A stretch of DNA of 64,000 bases from IMG/VR virus record IMGVR_UViG_3300042307_001176, positions 90,412 to 154,411 of that record. One strand, given 5' to 3'. Made by a program: the position numbers and the translations under genes. Under the pieces are notes generated by a model that did not search any database, was not told the origin of the DNA, and saw only the letters and a list, made by a program, of their open reading frames with translations. Position 1 is the first letter of the stretch, and the number at the start of each line of letters is the position of its first letter. Below are positions 929-10,298 of this stretch, piece by piece. This stretch comes from a virus.

Positions 929-966
929 TATATTTGTGAAACAAAATAACAAAGAGAACATATAAT
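929..966 (+). promoter_or_regulatory. Stacked promoters of tRNA operon 1
   Basis: TATATTTG (929-936, Bacteroidota -7 box) and GAAACA-N17-TATAAT (938-966). Confidence 0.6.
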
Positions 967-972
967 ACTCAA

Positions 973-1032
973 ATGAACAAAACAATTAACATATTACCTA
1001 TATCATTAAGACCGTCGTCAAGACGATCCTAA
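973..1032 (+). CDS. Attenuator leader peptide 1 (MNKTINILPISLRPSSRRS)
   Basis: Codons 7-19 are only ATA/TTA/CCN/TCN/AGA/CGA, matching downstream tRNAs; followed by antiterminator and terminator. Confidence 0.8.
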   Translation: MNKTINILPISLRPSSRRS

Positions 1033-1065
1033 AGGTCCTATGTTAATAAAAAATAATCATTAACT

Positions 1066-1099
1066 AAACCGGGACCTTTAAAAGTCTCGGTTTTTTTTT
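1066..1099 (+). terminator. Attenuator terminator, tRNA operon 1
   Basis: AAACCGGGAC/GTCTCGGTTT stem plus T tract; 1071-1080 can alternatively pair with 1030-1039. Confidence 0.85.
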
Positions 1100-1100
1100 G

Positions 1101-1112
1101 TGTTCTTTGACA
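1101..1112 (+). promoter_or_regulatory. boxA-like antitermination element
   Basis: TGTTCTTTGACA resembles rrn boxA TGCTCTTTAACA; same position in all three tRNA operons. Confidence 0.65.
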
Positions 1113-1129
1113 TGTTGGATTATAAAATT

Positions 1130-1219
1130 GGAGAGTTGCCAGAGCCAGGCTTAATGGATCAGTCTTGAAAACTGACGTAGCGAAAGTTACCGGGGGTTCG
1201 AATCCCTCACTCTCCGCCA
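1130..1219 (+). tRNA. tRNA-Ser(TGA)
   Basis: Cloverleaf, TCAGT-CTTGAAA-ACTGA, long variable arm, encoded CCA. Confidence 0.95.
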
Positions 1220-1222
1220 ATT

Positions 1223-1296
<74 letters not shown>

Positions 1297-1302
1297 CACA
1301 AA

Positions 1303-1460
1303 GCCCTCTGCCTAGCGCTGGGTATGGATCGAAGATAGAATATGCCTCTACAACGTAGACAGTTAGAATATTTCGGTATTCTTTAATGATATGCACACTT
1401 ATTCTCTAAATCGTGGGTTAGCACAGTTTGTATGTTCTGGGGATATTTAAAGACATACAA
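1303..1460 (+). ncRNA. Unassigned structured RNA within tRNA operon 1
   Basis: Several stems: TGCCTA/TGGGTA, TCTAC/GTAGA, AGAATA-TTTCGG-TATTCT, TTGTATGT/ACATACAA; no tRNA fold. Confidence 0.4.
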
Positions 1461-1463
1461 TTT

Positions 1464-1536
1464 CGGGATGTAGATCAGTTGGTAGATCGCCTGGTTTGGG
1501 ACCAGGAGGCCGTCAGTTCGAGTCTGGCCATCCCGA
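1464..1536 (+). tRNA. tRNA-Pro(TGG)
   Basis: CCTGG-TTTGGGA-CCAGG. Confidence 0.95.
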
Positions 1537-1543
1537 CATCAAT

Positions 1544-1617
1544 AGAGGCGTAGCTCAATTGGTTAGAGCACATGCCTTATACGCATGCGGTCACGAGTTC
1601 GACTCTCGTCGTCTCTA
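1544..1617 (+). tRNA. tRNA-Ile(TAT)
   Basis: CATGC-CTTATAC-GCATG; rare UAU anticodon. Confidence 0.9.
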
Positions 1618-1621
1618 CTTA

Positions 1622-1695
1622 GGTCCCTTAGCTCAGTAGGTTAGAGCAACTGACTCATAATCAGTAGGTCCACGGTTCGAGCCCGTGAGGGACCA
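1622..1695 (+). tRNA. tRNA with CAT anticodon, probably Ile2 (lysidine)
   Basis: ACTGA-CTCATAA-TCAGT with an Ile2-like body; separate fMet and Met candidates exist in the other operons. Confidence 0.8.
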
Positions 1696-1753
1696 CTAAA
1701 TTTTAAAGTCTTTAGGAGAACAAAAGTTCATGCTGGTTCAGATCCAACCTCTT
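1696..1753 (+). pseudogene. Possible decayed 3' part of a type II tRNA (Leu-TAA-like)
   Basis: CTAAA/TTTAG arm with TAA in the loop, variable hairpin GAAC-AAAA-GTTC, T-arm-like GCTGG-TTCAGAT-CCAAC; no D arm. Confidence 0.4.
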
Positions 1754-2153: not shown

Positions 2154-3005
2154 ATGGCAACAACAAGACCTTTTTCGTATAATCCAACGCAATCAACAAT
2201 TGCTGGAACTACTAATTTAGGTACCATATGTATAGGAGTATCTGATTTAGACTATGCTGCTAGCCCTGGAGGATTAACGTGGTGGATGGGACCGGATGAA
2301 GATAATTCTTATGTAGTATGCAAGGATGTACCAGCTCAAAATTTCCCTACTCCGTTAGGAAATATAGGCAATGTACAATTTTGGAGATGCACTAATACAG
2401 ATTTAGCATTTAGAGATATGGTATCTACAATAAGTGGTACTACACAAGCATCGGCTTCAGCAGCTAGTGATTGGTTAGCATCTAATAACTATTGGACTAA
2501 CAGAAATCCATATCTTGCAGGTCTATATAAAACAACTTACTCTGGATATTTCGCAGATTCAGTTAGTTTCTTTGCAACTGCAACTCCTCAAGCATTTGGA
2601 ACAAACCCAGCTACTTCTGTACAAACTACTGCAATATCAGAAGCAGCTAGTGGTGATGGTGATTATTTTAGTTGTCAATGGTTGGGTTATTTCAGTCCGA
2701 CTACTACTCAAACTTATACATTTTACACCAACTCGGATGATGCATCTTATGTGTGGGTTGGAGCAAATGCGATATCTGGATTTACTACAGCAAACGCAAC
2801 AGTCAATAATGGAGGTGCTCATGGTCCTATAGAGGCATCAGGTTCTATAGATCTAACTGCAGGAGTTTATTATCCTATAAGAATTCAATTCGGTGAAGCC
2901 GGCGGAGGTGATGTACTTACTTTCAATTATTCAACACCAACGATAGCAAAAACAACTAATGTAACAGGATTAGTTTTCTATAATACATCAACTAACGGAT
3001 TCTAA
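2154..3005 (+). CDS. PA14-domain protein (possible virion carbohydrate-binding)
   Basis: FSCQWLGYF..TYTFYTNSDDASYVW..NNGGAHG..YYPIRIQFGE; N-terminus shared with next gene. Confidence 0.8.
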   Translation: MATTRPFSYNPTQSTIAGTTNLGTICIGVSDLDYAASPGGLTWWMGPDEDNSYVVCKDVPAQNFPTPLGNIGNVQFWRCTNTDLAFRDMVSTISGTTQASASAASDWLASNNYWTNRNPYLAGLYKTTYSGYFADSVSFFATATPQAFGTNPATSVQTTAISEAASGDGDYFSCQWLGYFSPTTTQTYTFYTNSDDASYVWVGANAISGFTTANATVNNGGAHGPIEASGSIDLTAGVYYPIRIQFGEAGGGDVLTFNYSTPTIAKTTNVTGLVFYNTSTNGF

Positions 3006-5170: not shown

Positions 5171-5201
5171 GAAACTTTTCTGTACATTTGGAGTATATAA
5201 T
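5171..5201 (+). promoter_or_regulatory. Stacked promoters of tRNA operon 2
   Basis: GAAACT(5171)-N17-TATATAAT and TACATTTG (5183-5190). Confidence 0.6.
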
Positions 5202-5222
5202 AAAAAAGGAACAAAACTTTCA

Positions 5223-5312
5223 ATGAAACACTTTTTAAATATCGCAACAGATTTTCAACTTCGTAAAGAGGATGACCTTCTAGAGGATAGATTTAAGTGT
5301 CAGAGGAAATAA
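5223..5312 (+). CDS. Attenuator leader peptide 2 (MKHFLNIATDFQLRKEDDLLEDRFKCQRK)
   Basis: GAG GAT GAC CTT CTA GAG GAT run (5268-5288) matches downstream Glu/Asp/Leu(TAG) tRNAs. Confidence 0.8.
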   Translation: MKHFLNIATDFQLRKEDDLLEDRFKCQRK

Positions 5313-5333
5313 ATTTATATAATGATATAATTT

Positions 5334-5362
5334 AAACCTCTGATAACCTCAGAGGTTTTTTT
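5334..5362 (+). terminator. Attenuator terminator, tRNA operon 2
   Basis: AAACCTCTGA/TCAGAGGTTT plus T tract; 5337-5345 alternatively pairs with TGTCAGAGG 5298-5306. Confidence 0.85.
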
Positions 5363-5370
5363 GTTTTATA

Positions 5371-5382
5371 CGCTCTTTGAAA
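5371..5382 (+). promoter_or_regulatory. boxA-like element
   Basis: CGCTCTTTGAAA just before first tRNA. Confidence 0.6.
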
Positions 5383-5386
5383 TTAC

Positions 5387-5458
5387 GCTGCCATCGTCTA
5401 ACGGTTAGGACCTATGGTTTTCATCCATAAAATCGGAGTTCGATTCTCCGTGGCAGTA
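5387..5458 (+). tRNA. tRNA-Glu(TTC)
   Basis: TATGG-TTTTCAT-CCATA. Confidence 0.93.
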
Positions 5459-5469
5459 CAAAAAATTAA

Positions 5470-5544
5470 GGTCCCGTAGTTAAACGGCTATAATGCTGCC
5501 CTGTCACGGCAGAGTTCGGAGTTCGATTCTCCGCGGGACCGCCA
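5470..5544 (+). tRNA. tRNA-Asp(GTC)
   Basis: CTGCC-CTGTCAC-GGCAG, encoded CCA. Confidence 0.95.
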
Positions 5545-5552
5545 AATTATAT

Positions 5553-5625
<73 letters not shown>

Positions 5626-5629
5626 CTAA

Positions 5630-5710
5630 GCCCAGGTGGTGAAATGGTATACACGCTAGTCTTAGAAATTAGTGACGTAAGTCGTGAGGGTTCGAGTCCC
5701 TCCCTAGGTA
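5630..5710 (+). tRNA. tRNA-Leu(TAG)
   Basis: CTAGT-CTTAGAA-ATTAG, variable arm GAC-GTAA-GTC. Confidence 0.9.
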
Positions 5711-5712
5711 CT

Positions 5713-6282
5713 ATGAAAATTATATTTTTAGATCATGACGGTGTAATTTGTCTTTCCCAACAATTTGGAGGACGTTACAAAAAGCAGGCTAAAGCTAGAA
5801 AAAAGCTTTCTCAGGATCTGATGACTTTTCCTGTTGGAGCTAGGTTTGATAATTTTGATAAGAAAGCAATAAAGGTTTTAAATACAATCTTAGAAGAAAC
5901 AGGAGCTGAAATAGTGGTTTCTTCAGATTGGAAAAACTGGGCAACTGTAGAAGAAATGGGTGAATACTATAAAGAGCAAGGAATTATTAAAACTCCTATA
6001 GATTTCACTCCTAGAGAATACACGTTACCAGAGAAACAAGAATGGCATCCAGATTGGGATTTAGAAGCATCAAGAACTTTAGAAATCCAAGAATGGTTGA
6101 AAGATCATCCAGAAGTCTCTCATTGGGTAGCAATAGATGATTTGGATATGAGTTTTAAAGAAGTATCTTCTAATAGAAGCGGTACCGGATGGGGATTAAT
6201 AAATTTCGTACACACTCCAAGCCTTAATGAAGGTATTAAAAAATGTGGAATTAAAGAAAAAGTTTTAAAATTTTTAAAATAA
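5713..6282 (+). CDS. HAD-superfamily phosphatase (HAD_SAK_2, RNA-repair-associated type)
   Basis: IIFLDHDGV, IVVSSDW, WVAIDD; start moved to ATG 5713 because the track ORF overlaps tRNA-Leu. Confidence 0.75.
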   Translation: MKIIFLDHDGVICLSQQFGGRYKKQAKARKKLSQDLMTFPVGARFDNFDKKAIKVLNTILEETGAEIVVSSDWKNWATVEEMGEYYKEQGIIKTPIDFTPREYTLPEKQEWHPDWDLEASRTLEIQEWLKDHPEVSHWVAIDDLDMSFKEVSSNRSGTGWGLINFVHTPSLNEGIKKCGIKEKVLKFLK

Positions 6283-6757: not shown

Positions 6758-6797
6758 AAAATATCAAAAAACATCTTTTTATTCAAAAAAGATATTG

Positions 6798-6835
6798 TAC
6801 TTTTGCGAAACTATTCTGGAAACAGGATATATAAT
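6798..6835 (+). promoter_or_regulatory. Stacked promoters of tRNA operon 3
   Basis: TACTTTTG (6798), GAAACT(6807)-N17-TATAAT(6830), GATATATA (6826). Confidence 0.6.
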
Positions 6836-6843
6836 TAAGAAAA

Positions 6844-6951
6844 ATGAAAAACTGTAGTAAACATAACATCAATCGCATGATCAGTCAGATTAATGGCTGC
6901 TATCAAACGGTGGCGTTTTGGGCAAAGGGGAAAGAACCCGATCGAAGCTAA
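6844..6951 (+). CDS. Attenuator leader peptide 3 (MKNCSKHNINRMISQINGCYQTVAFWAKGKEPDRS)
   Basis: Codons 2-30 contain all 16, and only the 16, amino acids of the downstream tRNAs. Confidence 0.85.
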   Translation: MKNCSKHNINRMISQINGCYQTVAFWAKGKEPDRS

Positions 6952-6979
6952 TACAGGAAATCATATTTAGATATTTTGG

Positions 6980-7013
6980 AAAAGGCTTTGATTCACATCA
7001 AAGCCTTTTTTTT
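6980..7013 (+). terminator. Attenuator terminator, tRNA operon 3
   Basis: AAAAGGCTTTGAT/ATCAAAGCCTTTT plus T tract; 6984-6992 alternatively pairs with ATCGAAGCT 6941-6949. Confidence 0.85.
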
Positions 7014-7024
7014 GTTCTTTGACA
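7013..7024 (+). promoter_or_regulatory. boxA-like element
   Basis: TGTTCTTTGACA, identical to 1101-1112. Confidence 0.65.
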
Positions 7025-7037
7025 TACTGGAAAAAAT

Positions 7038-7110
7038 GGTACCGTAGCTCAGTCGGTAGAGCACTAGACTGAAAATCTAGGTGTCGCCGGTTCGATTCCG
7101 GCCGGTACCA
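7038..7110 (+). tRNA. tRNA-Phe(GAA)
   Basis: CTAGA-CTGAAAA-TCTAG. Confidence 0.95.
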
Positions 7111-7120
7111 CAATTAAAAT

Positions 7121-7193
7121 GATCTCGTAGCTCAGCTGGTAGAGCACCGCACTTTTAATGCGGGAGTCGAGGGTTCGAGCCCCTCCGGGATCA
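7121..7193 (+). tRNA. tRNA-Lys(TTT)
   Basis: CCGCA-CTTTTAA-TGCGG. Confidence 0.95.
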
Positions 7194-7199
7194 CTACAC

Positions 7200-7272
7200 A
7201 CATCAGTAGCTCAATTGGTAGAGTGTTGGTCTCCAAAACCAAAGGTTGTAGGTTCGATTCCTACCTGGTGTG
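7200..7272 (+). tRNA. tRNA-Trp(CCA)
   Basis: TTGGT-CTCCAAA-ACCAA. Confidence 0.95.
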
Positions 7273-7278
7273 CTAAAA

Positions 7279-7351
7279 GGCTCTGTAGTTCAAGGGATTA
7301 GAATGGATCACTACGGATGATCTGATCCTGGTTCGAATCCAGGTGGAGTCT
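7279..7351 (+). tRNA. tRNA-Arg(ACG)
   Basis: GATCA-CTACGGA-TGATC. Confidence 0.9.
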
Positions 7352-7362
7352 CAAACAAATAG

Positions 7363-7433
7363 GGTCGTGTGGTCGAGTGGTTAGGCACTAGTCTGCAAAA
7401 CTAGTTATACTGGTTCAATTCCAGTCACGACCT
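7363..7433 (+). tRNA. tRNA-Cys(GCA)
   Basis: CTAGT-CTGCAAA-ACTAG. Confidence 0.93.
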
Positions 7434-7450
7434 CAAAAAAATTTAAAAAT

Positions 7451-7588
7451 ATGATGATAGAAAGTAAAATAGTAGCCAGAGGAAGTTTCCCCTCAAGCAG
7501 AGAAAACTTAAGAAGAGAAACATTAAAATTTAATAGAGCCAAAATATTGATCGGAAGAATTAAAAGACTAATTAACAAAGGAAAGTAA
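7451..7588 (+). CDS. Small basic ORF (45 aa) inside tRNA operon 3
   Basis: MMIESKIVARGSFPSSRENLRRETLKFNRAKILIGRIKRLINKGK*; stop overlaps 5' end of tRNA-Ser. Confidence 0.45.
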   Translation: MMIESKIVARGSFPSSRENLRRETLKFNRAKILIGRIKRLINKGK

Positions 7589-7665
7589 TCTCAGATGGTG
7601 ACGGGGCTCGCCTGCTAAGCGAAGCGTACCTTAATTGGTATTTGGTTCGATTCCAATTCTTTCCG
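7580..7665 (+). tRNA. tRNA-Ser(GCT)
   Basis: TCGC-CTGCTAA-GCGA, long variable arm; somewhat atypical D arm. Confidence 0.85.
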
Positions 7666-7671
7666 CAACAT

Positions 7672-7748
7672 TGACATATAGCTCAGTTGGTTAGAGCGTT
7701 GATCTGATACGTCAAAGGCCGAAGGTTCGAATCCTTCTATGTCAACCA
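7672..7748 (+). tRNA. tRNA-Ile(GAT)
   Basis: TTGAT-CTGATAC-GTCAA, encoded CCA. Confidence 0.93.
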
Positions 7749-7753
7749 CATTT

Positions 7754-7826
7754 AGTCTCTTAGCTCAGTTGGCAGAGCGTTTGGTTTACATCCAAAATGT
7801 CGGGGGTTCGAATCCCTCAGGGACTA
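7754..7826 (+). tRNA. tRNA-Val(TAC)
   Basis: TTTGG-TTTACAT-CCAAA. Confidence 0.95.
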
Positions 7827-7828
7827 CA

Positions 7829-7910
7829 AGATTAGAAGCGGCGAATGGGGTTACTTCTCAGAACTTTTAAATTTGACCAAAAAACACCTCGCTCAAATAT
7901 TCTCTAATCT
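7829..7910 (+). ncRNA. Unassigned tRNA-sized structured RNA
   Basis: Ends pair (AGATTAGA/TCTAATCT); inner GCGA..GG/CC..TCGC stem. Confidence 0.4.
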
Positions 7911-7915
7911 AAACT

Positions 7916-7987
7916 GGGGATGTAGCTCAGCGGTAGAGCTCTCGACTGTTAATCGATAGGTCGCTGGTTCGAATCCAGCCTTCCCCG
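7916..7987 (+). tRNA. tRNA-Asn(GTT)
   Basis: TCGA-CTGTTAA-TCGA. Confidence 0.92.
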
Positions 7988-7992
7988 CAATT

Positions 7993-8074
7993 CGGAGTGT
8001 TGAGCAATTGGCTGCTCAGCTGACTGTAAATCAGCCGCCTTAAGGCATTGGGGGTTCGAATCCCTCCGCTCCGA
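7993..8074 (+). tRNA. tRNA-Tyr(GTA)
   Basis: GCTGA-CTGTAAA-TCAGC, variable arm. Confidence 0.92.
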
Positions 8075-8078
8075 CACA

Positions 8079-8147
8079 GTGTATCTGTAAGATATAGAGA
8101 CGGACAGTCCGACGGTTGAAGTGGATGCGTAATTCCACACGTCTCTA
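8079..8147 (+). ncRNA. Unassigned small three-way-junction RNA
   Basis: TAGAGACG/CGTCTCTA closing stem with two inner hairpins (CAGTC/GGTTG; GTGGA/TCCAC). Confidence 0.45.
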
Positions 8148-8150
8148 AAT

Positions 8151-8226
8151 GCGATAGTAGCTCAGTTGGTAGAGCACCGTCCTTCCAAGTCGGGGGTCGC
8201 AGGTTCGAATCCTGTCTATCGCTCCA
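8151..8226 (+). tRNA. tRNA-Gly(TCC)
   Basis: Anticodon loop CTTCCAA, encoded CCA. Confidence 0.92.
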
Positions 8227-8227
8227 C

Positions 8228-8300
8228 GGGGTAGTAGCTCAATTGGCTGAGCGCTTCCTTTGCAAGGAAGAGGATGTGGGTTCAAGTCCCATCTACTCCA
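8228..8300 (+). tRNA. tRNA-Ala(TGC)
   Basis: CTTCC-TTTGCAA-GGAAG; G3:U70. Confidence 0.95.
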
Positions 8301-8307
8301 CTTATAT

Positions 8308-8380
8308 GGCGAGTTAGCTCAGTTGGTAGAGCGTTGGAATCATACCCCAAAGGTCGGCAGTTCGAACCTGCCACTCGCTA
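8308..8380 (+). tRNA. tRNA-Met(CAT), elongator
   Basis: GGCGAGT acceptor; loop ATCATAC. Confidence 0.85.
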
Positions 8381-8382
8381 CT

Positions 8383-8459
8383 GTGACGGTAGCTCAGTTG
8401 GTTAGAGCGTCTGATTGTGGTTCAGAAGGTCGGGGGTTCGATTCCCCTCTGTCACCCCA
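8383..8459 (+). tRNA. tRNA-His(GTG)
   Basis: TCTGA-TTGTGGT-TCAGA, C73, CCA. Confidence 0.93.
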
Positions 8460-8460
8460 T

Positions 8461-8533
8461 GCCTTTGTAGCTCAGTTGGTAGAGCACTTCACTTGTAATG
8501 AAGATGTCGCAGGTTCAATCCCTGTCAAAGGCT
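8461..8533 (+). tRNA. tRNA-Thr(TGT)
   Basis: CTTCA-CTTGTAA-TGAAG. Confidence 0.95.
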
Positions 8534-8539
8534 CTAAAT

Positions 8540-8612
8540 TGTCCTGTGGTGTAATTGGCAACACGTCTGGTTTTGGACCAGAAGAGTCCAGGTTCGAGCC
8601 CTGGCGGGACAT
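8540..8612 (+). tRNA. tRNA-Gln(TTG)
   Basis: TCTGG-TTTTGGA-CCAGA. Confidence 0.95.
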
Positions 8613-8659
8613 CTAAAAAATAAGATAAATAGATTGACCAGTGTGTAAAAAATGTAGTT

Positions 8660-9148
8660 ATGAAAGTGCTAGTTCTAAATAATGACTTTACTCCTATAAG
8701 TGTTACCGACTTTGCTCGTGGATTTAAGCTTGTGTATAAAGGTAAAGCAGAAGTTTTAGAGCACGATGAACAAAATCCAATTGTTACTGAACAAAGCACT
8801 TACAAAAGACCTTCTGTTATCAGACTTTTAAAATATGTTGTATTGCCTTTTAAGAAGTTAAAACCGACTAGGGAAAATATCTTTAGAAGAGATGGGATGA
8901 AATGTGTTTATTGTGATACTACTAAGAACCTAACAATAGATCACGTTCTACCTAGATCTAGAGGTGGAGTTAATACATGGGAGAATCTAACAACATGTTG
9001 TTCAAAATGTAACAATAAAAAAGATGACAGGACTCCAGAAGAAGCTGGAATGAGAATGAGACAGAAACCATTCAAGCCAGGATACGGATATTTTATACGC
9101 AATTTCGCAAAAGGATTGGAGGTATGGACAGCATATCTCCCTGATTAA
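8660..9148 (+). CDS. HNH endonuclease (McrA/HNH_5-like)
   Basis: RDGMKCVYC, TIDHVLPRSRGG..WENLTTCCSKCNNKK. Confidence 0.9.
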   Translation: MKVLVLNNDFTPISVTDFARGFKLVYKGKAEVLEHDEQNPIVTEQSTYKRPSVIRLLKYVVLPFKKLKPTRENIFRRDGMKCVYCDTTKNLTIDHVLPRSRGGVNTWENLTTCCSKCNNKKDDRTPEEAGMRMRQKPFKPGYGYFIRNFAKGLEVWTAYLPD

Positions 9149-9233: not shown

Positions 9234-10298
9234 ATGTTATTTGATTTTGACGATATCTTAATTGAACCTGAAATACAAACCCACATTAGATCAAGAAAAC
9301 AGGTCGATGTAATGGACGAAAAACAAATGCTTCCTCTCTTTACTGCACCTATGGATACAGTTATAAATGAGGATAATATAAATATATTTAATAACAATAA
9401 AATATATGGAATTATTCCCAGAAAAGCCAATCCTGGATTAGATTACTTCTCAACTAATTATAAGGTATGGTATTCCTATGGTTTAGATGATTTTAAGAAG
9501 ATATTTATTGAAAATGATATAAACCTAAAGATAGGTGAAAGATCGTTTGTCTTAATTGATGTAGCAAATGGTCATATGAAATATGTTAAGGACTTAGTTA
9601 AAGAATCAAAAGAAAAATACGGAAGATCTTTAGTGCTAATGGTGGGAAATTGTGCTAATCCATCTACATTTTTATCTCTGTCACAAGTTGGAGCGGATTA
9701 CGTCAGAATGGGAATAGGTAACGGAGCTGGGTGTCTAACCACCGTTCAAACTGGTATCGGTTACCCTATGGCATCTTTAATTCATGAAACAGTTAAGATA
9801 CAACAAGAAAGAAACCTCACAACAAAGATAGTAGCAGATGGAGGTTTTAAAAAATATGCAGATGTTATTAAAGCATTGGCTTTAGGAGCTGACTATGTTA
9901 TGCTTGGTAGTATTTTTAATAAAACATTAGAAAGTTGTGGCGAAACATATGAAGGTAATAAAAAATATGATTCATGGACCGAGCCTGGTGACAAAGTAGA
10001 CCAATACTCTTTAGATGTTCTAATACAATTTGAAGCTGGTAAAAAATTCTATAAAAAATTTAGAGGCATGTCAACTAAGGATGTGCAGAAGAGTCTAGGC
10101 AAAACAGAATTAAAAACATCAGAAGGAATTTCTAAAATGCAACCAGTTGAATATACTCTTACCGGATGGATTGAGAACTTTACTGATTATTTAAAATCTG
10201 CTATGAGTTATACTGATTGTTTAACTATTGGTGAATTTATTGGAAAGGTTAGATTCAATAAAATTTCAAAAAATTCAATGGAAAGATTCAATAAATAG
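9234..10298 (+). CDS. IMP dehydrogenase / GMP reductase family protein
   Basis: APMDTV, IDVANGH, GIGNGAGCLT, ADGG, FRGMST, LKSAMSY. Confidence 0.88.
   Translation: MLFDFDDILIEPEIQTHIRSRKQVDVMDEKQMLPLFTAPMDTVINEDNINIFNNNKIYGIIPRKANPGLDYFSTNYKVWYSYGLDDFKKIFIENDINLKIGERSFVLIDVANGHMKYVKDLVKESKEKYGRSLVLMVGNCANPSTFLSLSQVGADYVRMGIGNGAGCLTTVQTGIGYPMASLIHETVKIQQERNLTTKIVADGGFKKYADVIKALALGADYVMLGSIFNKTLESCGETYEGNKKYDSWTEPGDKVDQYSLDVLIQFEAGKKFYKKFRGMSTKDVQKSLGKTELKTSEGISKMQPVEYTLTGWIENFTDYLKSAMSYTDCLTIGEFIGKVRFNKISKNSMERFNK

Follow-up and report, generated by a model that had tools for sequence, protein, structure and literature searches.

To our knowledge, all described leader-peptide attenuators regulate amino-acid biosynthesis or aminoacyl-tRNA synthetase genes, and the control that phages exert over their own tRNA genes is essentially unknown. 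In the enterobacterial amino-acid leaders (ilvGMEDA for Ile/Val/Leu, thrL for Thr/Ile, trpL, hisL, leuL and pheL), a short translated leader with regulatory codons, which may be of more than one specificity, is followed by an intrinsic terminator placed before the regulated genes. The antiterminator is masked by the ribosome at the leader end, and the signal is the availability of charged tRNA at the ribosome. Leader-peptide attenuation also acts on a component of the translation apparatus in pheST, where the pheM leader adjusts phenylalanyl-tRNA synthetase through decoding by tRNA-Phe. T-box riboswitches likewise read tRNA status with a terminator/antiterminator switch in front of translation-related genes, but no ribosome takes part: specifier codon and T-box sequence bind one uncharged tRNA directly. 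At the start of long untranslated RNA operons, rrn-type Nus-factor sites carry a boxA motif with the consensus GYTCTTTAANA (PMC5725501). In Anabaena, the trn operon, a long tRNA array, stays silent until translational stress (PMC8421152) and is controlled by the protein repressor TrcR (PMC10272220). As for phage tRNAs, their purpose is debated between codon compensation and escape from tRNA-cleaving host immunity (PMC10264068, PMC11555353).

The window analysed here, 64,000 nucleotides, forms the final 64 kb of an IMG/VR phage record of 154,411 bp with 33% G+C and an estimated completeness of 66%; the phage is present in many lake-water metagenomes. The 24 tRNA genes called with confidence in the record (ARAGORN, Rfam) all lie in three plus-strand clusters, each behind a short leader ORF and a terminator. 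From the sequence, we think it likely that the leader of the third array is a ribosome-mediated leader-peptide transcription attenuator of a phage tRNA operon, which would sense decoding speed, that is, tRNA supply, and not amino acids. The phage would probably make the array-3 tRNAs only when ribosomes read their codons slowly. The features of this module and of the tRNA clusters are the following:

6798-6805, plus strand: putative promoter -7 element TACTTTTG, of the type TAnnTTTG, read from the sequence.
6828-6835, plus strand: TATATAAT motif just 5' of the leader-3 ATG, present before all three leaders and also in relatives.
6844-6951, plus strand: leader ORF 3, 35 codons, with ATG at 6844 and TAA at 6949-6951; translation MKNCSKHNINRMISQINGCYQTVAFWAKGKEPDRS.
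6909-6923, plus strand: segment 1, invariant GGCGTTTTGGGC block, codons 22-27, which can pair with segment 2.
6939-6950, plus strand: segment 2, 5' strand of the antiterminator, CGATCGAAGCTA, overlapping codons 33-35 and the stop codon.
6978-7013, plus strand: intrinsic terminator, segments 3 and 4, with stem GGAAAAGGCTTTGAT/ATCAAAGCCTTTTTT, loop TCAC and then a run of 8 T.
7013-7025, plus strand: boxA-like motif TGTTCTTTGACAT, with one mismatch to the consensus.
7038-8613, plus strand: tRNA array 3 (ARAGORN, Rfam), with Phe, Lys, Trp, Arg-ACG, Cys, a Ser-GCT-like gene, Ile-GAT, Val, Asn, Tyr, Gly, Ala, Met, His, Thr and Gln.
7580-7666, plus strand: type-II tRNA-Ser(GCT)-like gene of array 3, sub-threshold, detected by ARAGORN at the relaxed setting only.
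1130-1696, plus strand: tRNA cluster 1, with Ser-TGA, Arg-TCT, Pro, Ile-TAT and Met.
5387-5711, plus strand: tRNA cluster 2, with Glu, Asp, Met and Leu-TAG.

As predicted from this layout, the module would share all the traits listed above with the enterobacterial leaders. Unlike them, it would regulate not biosynthetic enzymes but tRNA genes: those behind leader 3 are neither amino-acid biosynthesis nor aminoacyl-tRNA synthetase genes. The phage leaders contain up to 16 specificities, mostly once or twice each, where the enterobacterial ones contain runs of one to three amino acids. They also use codons specific for each isoacceptor, have a boxA after the terminator, and are phage-borne, with putative Bacteroidota-type promoters and no Shine-Dalgarno sequence. 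With pheST the module would share the control of a translation-apparatus component by leader-peptide attenuation, whereas pheST has a single specificity and a protein enzyme as the regulated product, and the product here would be the tRNA itself. The likeness to T-boxes would lie in the type of switch and in the reading of tRNA status, but the phage signal is in the ORF frame. No match to the T-box model (RF00230; stem I with specifier loop, T-box sequence) or to other Rfam leaders was found in the window at the gathering threshold, and the region 6760-7037 gave no Rfam match up to E = 10 except chance terminator-like ones. The boxA-like motif stands, as in rrn operons, at the start of a long untranslated RNA operon; here it is 3' of a putative conditional terminator and before arrays containing only tRNAs. 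The Anabaena trn operon offers a parallel in a silent tRNA array switched on by impaired translation, but through a repressor instead of a leader peptide and a terminator. The mechanism class is known; what is new is the regulated product (tRNA genes), the breadth of specificities and the isoacceptor coding. Our literature search turned up no account of tRNA genes controlled by a leader peptide.

The original prediction held that codons 2-30 of leader 3 encode exactly K, N, C, S, H, I, R, M, Q, G, Y, T, V, A, F and W, the specificities of the array behind it. This is the case, with the Ser-GCT-like gene included; Leu is absent, and Glu, Pro and Asp are confined to codons 31-33, both as predicted. 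The 16-specificity match holds provided that the sub-threshold Ser(GCT)-like gene is counted: 15 tRNAs of the array are called by ARAGORN and Rfam and this gene is the 16th, with 38.3 bits on the Rfam tRNA-Sec model against a gathering score of 47. Its counterpart in the related locus L091 is called at ARAGORN default settings. The probability of such a composition, a calculation suggested together with the prediction, is ~6e-7 by chance for leader 3. Calculated analytically with the amino-acid usage of this genome, the probability that all 29 codons fall inside the 16-member set is 2.6e-4, that all 16 specificities are covered 1.8e-4, and that both occur 6.4e-7, or 2.1e-6 with a free cut point. 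At the codon level, the downstream anticodons can read 30 of 34 codons, where 17.5 are expected (P = 7e-6), with no enrichment for the tRNAs of the other two operons of the same genome. Among the codons used is CGC, whose frequency in the phage genes is 0.3 per 1000. The leader is conserved in six relatives (L003, L136, L149, L159, L091 and L070).

An excess of codons ending in G, taken in the original prediction as a sign of wobble-sensitised sensing, is borne out by the counts. With baseline codon usage taken from this genome only, 10 of the 18 NNR codons of U34 tRNAs in the window's three leaders end in G (3.3 expected), as do 32 of 76 across the leader families described below (14.3 expected). 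Its meaning is less settled, since the excess may reflect either wobble sensitivity or the G+C demand of the RNA structure.

Between the leader ORF and the tRNA genes, the terminator has a stem of 13-15 bp followed by U8 (terminator scan; MFE fold z = -4.1), and its arms form a duplex of -18.5 kcal/mol. The competing pairing, that of segment 2 with the terminator 5' arm (6983-6993), amounts to -12.5 kcal/mol. It contains the antiterminator originally proposed, ATCGAAGCT (6941-6949) with GGCTTTGAT (6984-6992), which does pair over 9 bp, two of them G.U. Every homologue of the three leaders of the window preserves the antiterminator pairing. In L003, L091 and L070, a T to C change in the 5' arm turns an antiterminator G.U into G-C, and in L003 and L070 the terminator carries the compensatory change from T-A to C-G. 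Equilibrium folding with ribosome masks at successive codons kept the terminator every time; equilibrium calculations cannot show a kinetic switch, and because equilibrium always favours the terminator (-18.5 against -12.5 kcal/mol in leader 3), the switch must be kinetic. Segment 1, whose duplex with segment 2 reaches -12.0 kcal/mol and whose block is invariant in 7/7 homologues, would possibly form a pause hairpin or an anti-antiterminator hairpin. A strict four-segment scheme with 1:2 pairing could make stalls at early codons ineffective, which fits poorly with cognate codons all along the ORF.

The last T of the terminator is also the first base of boxA, and tRNA-Phe begins at 7038. This leaves no room for a promoter between terminator and tRNA, so the tRNAs must be transcribed through the terminator. 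A promoter reading of the boxA itself, with TTGACA as a -35 or TTTG as a -33 element, was ruled out, since the motif lies 12-16 nt before the tRNA and is not followed by a -10 or -7 box. The candidate promoter is located upstream of the leader: a -7 element lies ~35-45 nt 5' of all three leader ATGs, as TATATTTG (929-936) and TACATTTG (5183-5190) in the sister modules, and as TAATTTTG in the relative L003. TAnnTTTG is a promoter consensus of Bacteroidota. The TATATAAT motif, of which the genome has 56 copies, occurs also in the regions 958-965 and 5194-5201, each time between the TAnnTTTG box and the leader ATG at a variable distance from the box. It may be a second, phage-type promoter giving nearly leaderless leader mRNAs, or an element of the initiation region. 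A Shine-Dalgarno sequence was not found at leader 3. Its absence is expected for Bacteroidota hosts; nevertheless, it weakens the case for translation of the ORF. In most leader families the nucleotide motif AACATAT is found 11-17 nt after the leader ATG (window positions 6844-6870; first 36 nt of the leaders of loci L003-L164). Since it is read in two frames (K-H or N-I / D-I), what is conserved is the RNA or DNA sequence and not the peptide.

The other two tRNA clusters of the window are preceded by modules of the same design:

929-1113, plus strand: sister module 1, with -7 box at 929-936, leader ORF at 973-1032, terminator at 1066-1100 and boxA at 1101-1113.
5183-5383, plus strand: sister module 2, with -7 box at 5183-5190, leader ORF at 5223-5312 and terminator at 5334-5365.

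The leader of module 1, MNKTINILPISLRPSSRRS, is rich in ATA, TCA/TCG, AGA and CCN and has tRNA cluster 1 behind it; 8 of its 18 codons are cognate against 2.4 expected (P = 0.001), and its antiterminator is TAAAGGTCC (1030-1038). The leader of module 2, MKHFLNIATDFQLRKEDDLLEDRFKCQRK, contains the run GAG GAT GAC CTT CTA GAG GAT and precedes tRNA cluster 2, with the antiterminator TCAGAGG at 5300-5306 and the boxA-like CGCTCTTTGAAAT at 5371-5383. When the three leaders of this one genome were compared with the three operons in a 3x3 table, each leader matched its own operon only.

How general is this arrangement? A search with the flanking proteins gave one close relative, L003, whose upstream protein is 75% identical, yet whose leader is only three substitutions apart. 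A DNA-similarity search of cultured phages returned tRNA matches only. We scanned IMG/VR with the boxA pattern, filtering only for a terminator directly 5' of boxA, because unfiltered hits were mostly chance or inter-tRNA matches. The filtered scan yielded 64 units with 41 distinct leaders in 18 families; the terminator, being the selection criterion, is present in all 64 units. Nearly all leaders start with MKN or MKT and their stop codon lies 19-38 nt before the terminator stem; since the families share this N-terminal motif, they are not fully independent in origin. In units without a tRNA directly downstream, a small protein gene intervenes and the tRNAs lie behind it: in L008, L013, L023, L139, L146, L152 and L164 a gene of 100-207 codons, with its own TAnnTTTG-like element, stands between boxA and tRNAs. 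It looks like a mobile insertion into the module.

The match between leaders and tRNAs was evaluated with one representative per leader family. When the tRNA sets were permuted among families, none of 20000 permutations reached the observed value (z = 5.5); leaving out the three families of the window gave z = 4.8. Compared with random peptides drawn from the leader composition of the other families, 90 of the 91 downstream specificities (~99%) are covered, where 63.9 +/- 3.8 are expected, and 204 of 491 residues are cognate, where 132 +/- 9 are expected (z = 8.1). Read in any of its other five frames, the same DNA reaches a coverage of 62-70%, with 25-30% of residues cognate. That the match appears in the ORF frame only indicates a signal read as codons. 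The claim that the leader encodes the downstream set and nothing else stands for leader 3 but is peculiar to its family, as ~58% of the residues are non-cognate across families. Homologous leaders, in which a loss of the match had been named as evidence against the prediction, keep it: it recurs in the 18 families and in a cultured phage.

The anatomy itself is conserved as well. In 13 of the 18 families a stretch near the ORF end complements the terminator 5' arm at z < -2 (mean z -3.4, combined by Fisher's method to P = 5e-19), with antiterminator energies close to those of the terminator arms; in the other 5/18 families the complementarity is only weak. Cognate codons are enriched in every four-codon bin except the last (0.38-0.59 against ~0.26). 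The last four codons of the 18 families show no enrichment (0.24 against 0.25), in agreement with the original argument that a ribosome stalled there already covers the antiterminator.

These results bear on the reading that the ORF is an ordinary small gene, or the hairpin an insulating terminator, with tRNAs produced by constitutive leak or from elsewhere and a composition that matches by chance. Terminators before tRNA clusters and tiny ORFs are indeed common in phages. However, a P of ~6e-7 for leader 3 alone, z values of 5-8 across families, a match restricted to one frame, the lack of promoter room between terminator and tRNA and the conserved antiterminator complementarity at the stop codon make this reading highly improbable.

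A cultured phage provides an independently ascertained case, because Cellulophaga phage phi4:1 (locus L305) was reached via tRNA similarity and not via boxA. It has two promoter-leader-terminator-tRNA modules, neither with a boxA, located at about 87,065-87,195 and 88,025-88,170 of NC_021788.1. The leader MKIQRLHLQELEQPIISGGTGV, before Pro, Glu, Gln, His, Leu-TAG, Leu-TAA and Arg-ACG, covers 6/6 specificities, with CGT, TTA and CTA among its codons (cognate-residue P = 0.004). The second leader, located inside the annotated gp075 and with an uncertain start codon, covers 9/9 specificities with 23 of 26 residues cognate (P = 5e-5), ahead of Ala, Lys, Ile, Gly, Met, Asp, Thr, Val, Arg-TCT, Met and Tyr. 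In the same phage, the annotated gp076 (MNRWDEPGLENQWRFKSLGDRALRLPQVHYKAL; L305 8118-8219) precedes Ser-GCT, Asn, Trp and Phe and holds all four residues. No clear terminator was found after gp076, which may be a degenerate or a different kind of module.

What would the leader sense? Where an amino acid has tRNAs for different codon boxes, the codon box used in the leader follows the isoacceptor encoded downstream (contingency table 18, 3 / 2, 23; Fisher P = 8e-8). For Ser, TCR codons accompany Ser-TGA and AGY codons Ser-GCT; for Leu, CTN codons accompany Leu-TAG and TTR codons Leu-TAA; for Arg, CGN accompanies Arg-ACG and AGA Arg-TCT; for Ile, ATA accompanies Ile-TAT and ATY Ile-GAT. In L062, Leu-GAG, Leu-TAG and Leu-CAA occur with CTC, CTA/CTG and TTG, respectively. 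Thus, the leader-tRNA match on which the original prediction was built holds, but amino-acid pools as such, which it had taken as the signal, are probably not what is sensed: a match at the level of isoacceptor and codon makes decoding capacity, i.e. charged-tRNA supply, the most likely sensed variable. Could the same hardware nevertheless sense amino-acid starvation and raise tRNA output when any of the 16 amino acids is short? Classical leader-peptide attenuators do respond to starvation, via uncharged tRNA, and the amino-acid set of the leader equals that of the operon. We nonetheless regard starvation sensing as unlikely, because the codons follow a particular downstream isoacceptor and not merely the amino acid, because extra tRNA cannot relieve a lack of amino acid, and because the regulated products themselves decode the test codons, which gives a direct tRNA feedback loop.

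A model of decoding-speed attenuation can be drawn for leader 3. Transcription would start at the Bacteroidota-type promoter (-7 box 6798-6805) and a ribosome would translate the 35-codon leader (6844-6951). When decoding is fast, the ribosome would reach the last codons or the stop and cover segment 2 (6939-6950) while the polymerase makes segments 3 and 4; with segment 2 covered, the terminator (6978-7013) would form, transcription would end at the U-run and the tRNA genes would stay silent. When decoding is slow at any of codons 2 to ~30 because the cognate charged tRNA is scarce, segment 2 would remain free and pair with segment 3. The antiterminator would then preclude the terminator and the polymerase would read on past boxA (7013-7025), where it would probably become a Rho-resistant, rRNA-type antitermination complex and transcribe the 16 untranslated tRNA genes. 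Since the leader codons are read by tRNAs of the same operon, the products would feed back negatively on tRNA supply. The remaining two clusters would be gated by the same design, each with its own codon set. The parts, their conservation and the leader-tRNA match down to the codons are observed; the translation of the ORF, the step from stalling to read-through and the recruitment of Nus factors by boxA we infer from sequence features.

The original prediction called this a multiplex OR-gate attenuator. The attenuator part is supported, with promoter, ORF, antiterminator and terminator all conserved; the strict OR gate is not, because a kinetic race fits equally well, and in such a race decoding delays would be summed. 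A simple race model also gives read-through without translation. This agrees with a non-specific sensor of translation status, in which the attenuator opens whenever ribosome activity or the coupling of transcription to translation is lost, and the codon match plays a secondary part, for example that of keeping the leader readable late in infection through the phage's own tRNAs. The conserved MKN start and the A-rich initiation region, which suggest tuning of initiation, point the same way. But such a sensor leaves unexplained the 99% coverage of the own set, the different leaders for each operon within one genome, the use of very rare codons (CGC) at the isoacceptor level and the G-ending excess, and we hold it to be very unlikely.

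The boxA would be an accessory and not the switch, given that the phi4:1 modules lack it. In the window phage, GTTCTTTGACA matches 10/11 positions of GYTCTTTAANA at the start of an untranslated RNA operon, and the 154-kb record contains exactly three boxA-like motifs, one per module, all before tRNA arrays. An identical 12-mer lies ~170 nt 5' of a 16S rRNA gene in locus L210. These matches suggest that the motif recruits Nus factors. A hairpin also precedes boxA in rrn leaders, and a hairpin with a T-run is found shortly before boxA in Flavobacteriaceae genomes, so that the hairpin of the phage modules might be read as a boxB-like part of an rrn-type nut site instead of a terminator. The phage hairpins, however, are G+C-rich stems followed by 5-9 U, and we include this variant in the highly improbable small-gene reading considered above. 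In two of the Flavobacteriaceae genomes (L287 and L293, around position 1500), a long ORF has GTTCTTTGACAT in its leader, immediately preceded by a very small and strongly basic ORF (MPSGKKRKRHKVATHKRKKRRRANRHKKK) and by a hairpin plus T-run. The long ORF, recognised by eye, is presumably RNase E/G-like, and a Nus-factor-regulated host gene is possible.

The attenuator module was not found in the bacterial genomes searched. Among bacterial genome contigs, the T6+boxA 18-mer had at least 120 matches, some of them 16S leaders, and none of those listed had a tRNA within 400 nt downstream; in a sample of 401 Bacteroidota genomes, a T-run plus boxA occurred in 6, and 0/6 of these had a tRNA within 500 nt downstream. 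In metatranscriptomes (four RNA runs) the contigs were mainly conserved tRNA pieces. One freshwater RNA contig of a relative spans the region equivalent to 6840-6898 together with the Lys, Trp and Arg tRNAs; such contigs carry no transcript-end information and so do not bear on termination or expression.

If decoding-speed attenuation is true, phage tRNA supply would be under demand-driven feedback, and the reach of leader-peptide attenuation would grow beyond amino-acid metabolism to include RNA genes, with sixteen specificities in place of one to three. The module would also be a compact natural sensor of tRNA availability. The phi4:1 modules, being in a cultured phage, make the attenuation idea directly testable. 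A further, tentative possibility, which we hold with some doubt, is that a phage counter-defence circuit uses the leaders as per-isoacceptor test strips. With them it would detect that individual host tRNAs are lost in the course of infection, cleaved by anticodon nucleases (PARIS, retron or Schlafen-type effectors) or depleted by host shut-off, and only then switch on the matching replacement block, with the G-ending wobble codons sharpening the sensor. Were this so, it would be the first case of a sensor-actuator loop through which tRNA genes govern their own transcription by the decoding of their own codons, and one widespread in Bacteroidota phages.

Several neighbouring genes, all on the plus strand, deserve mention. 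Directly after tRNA cluster 2, the gene 5716-6282 encodes a HAD_SAK_2 protein, with the HAD domain known from 'Swiss Army Knife' proteins of RNA repair (PF18143, E = 5e-23), which suggests that the phage also repairs damaged RNA, possibly tRNA; an RNA-repair-type gene adjoining the tRNA arrays fits a context of tRNA damage. A PA14/GLEYA carbohydrate-binding-domain protein is encoded at 2154-3005, between tRNA clusters 1 and 2. Inside array 3, a 45-codon ORF (7451-7588) without a Pfam match is found between tRNA-Cys and the Ser-like tRNA, whose start it overlaps. Directly 3' of the array there is an HNH endonuclease gene (8660-9148), followed by an IMPDH/GMP-reductase-like gene (9234-10298).
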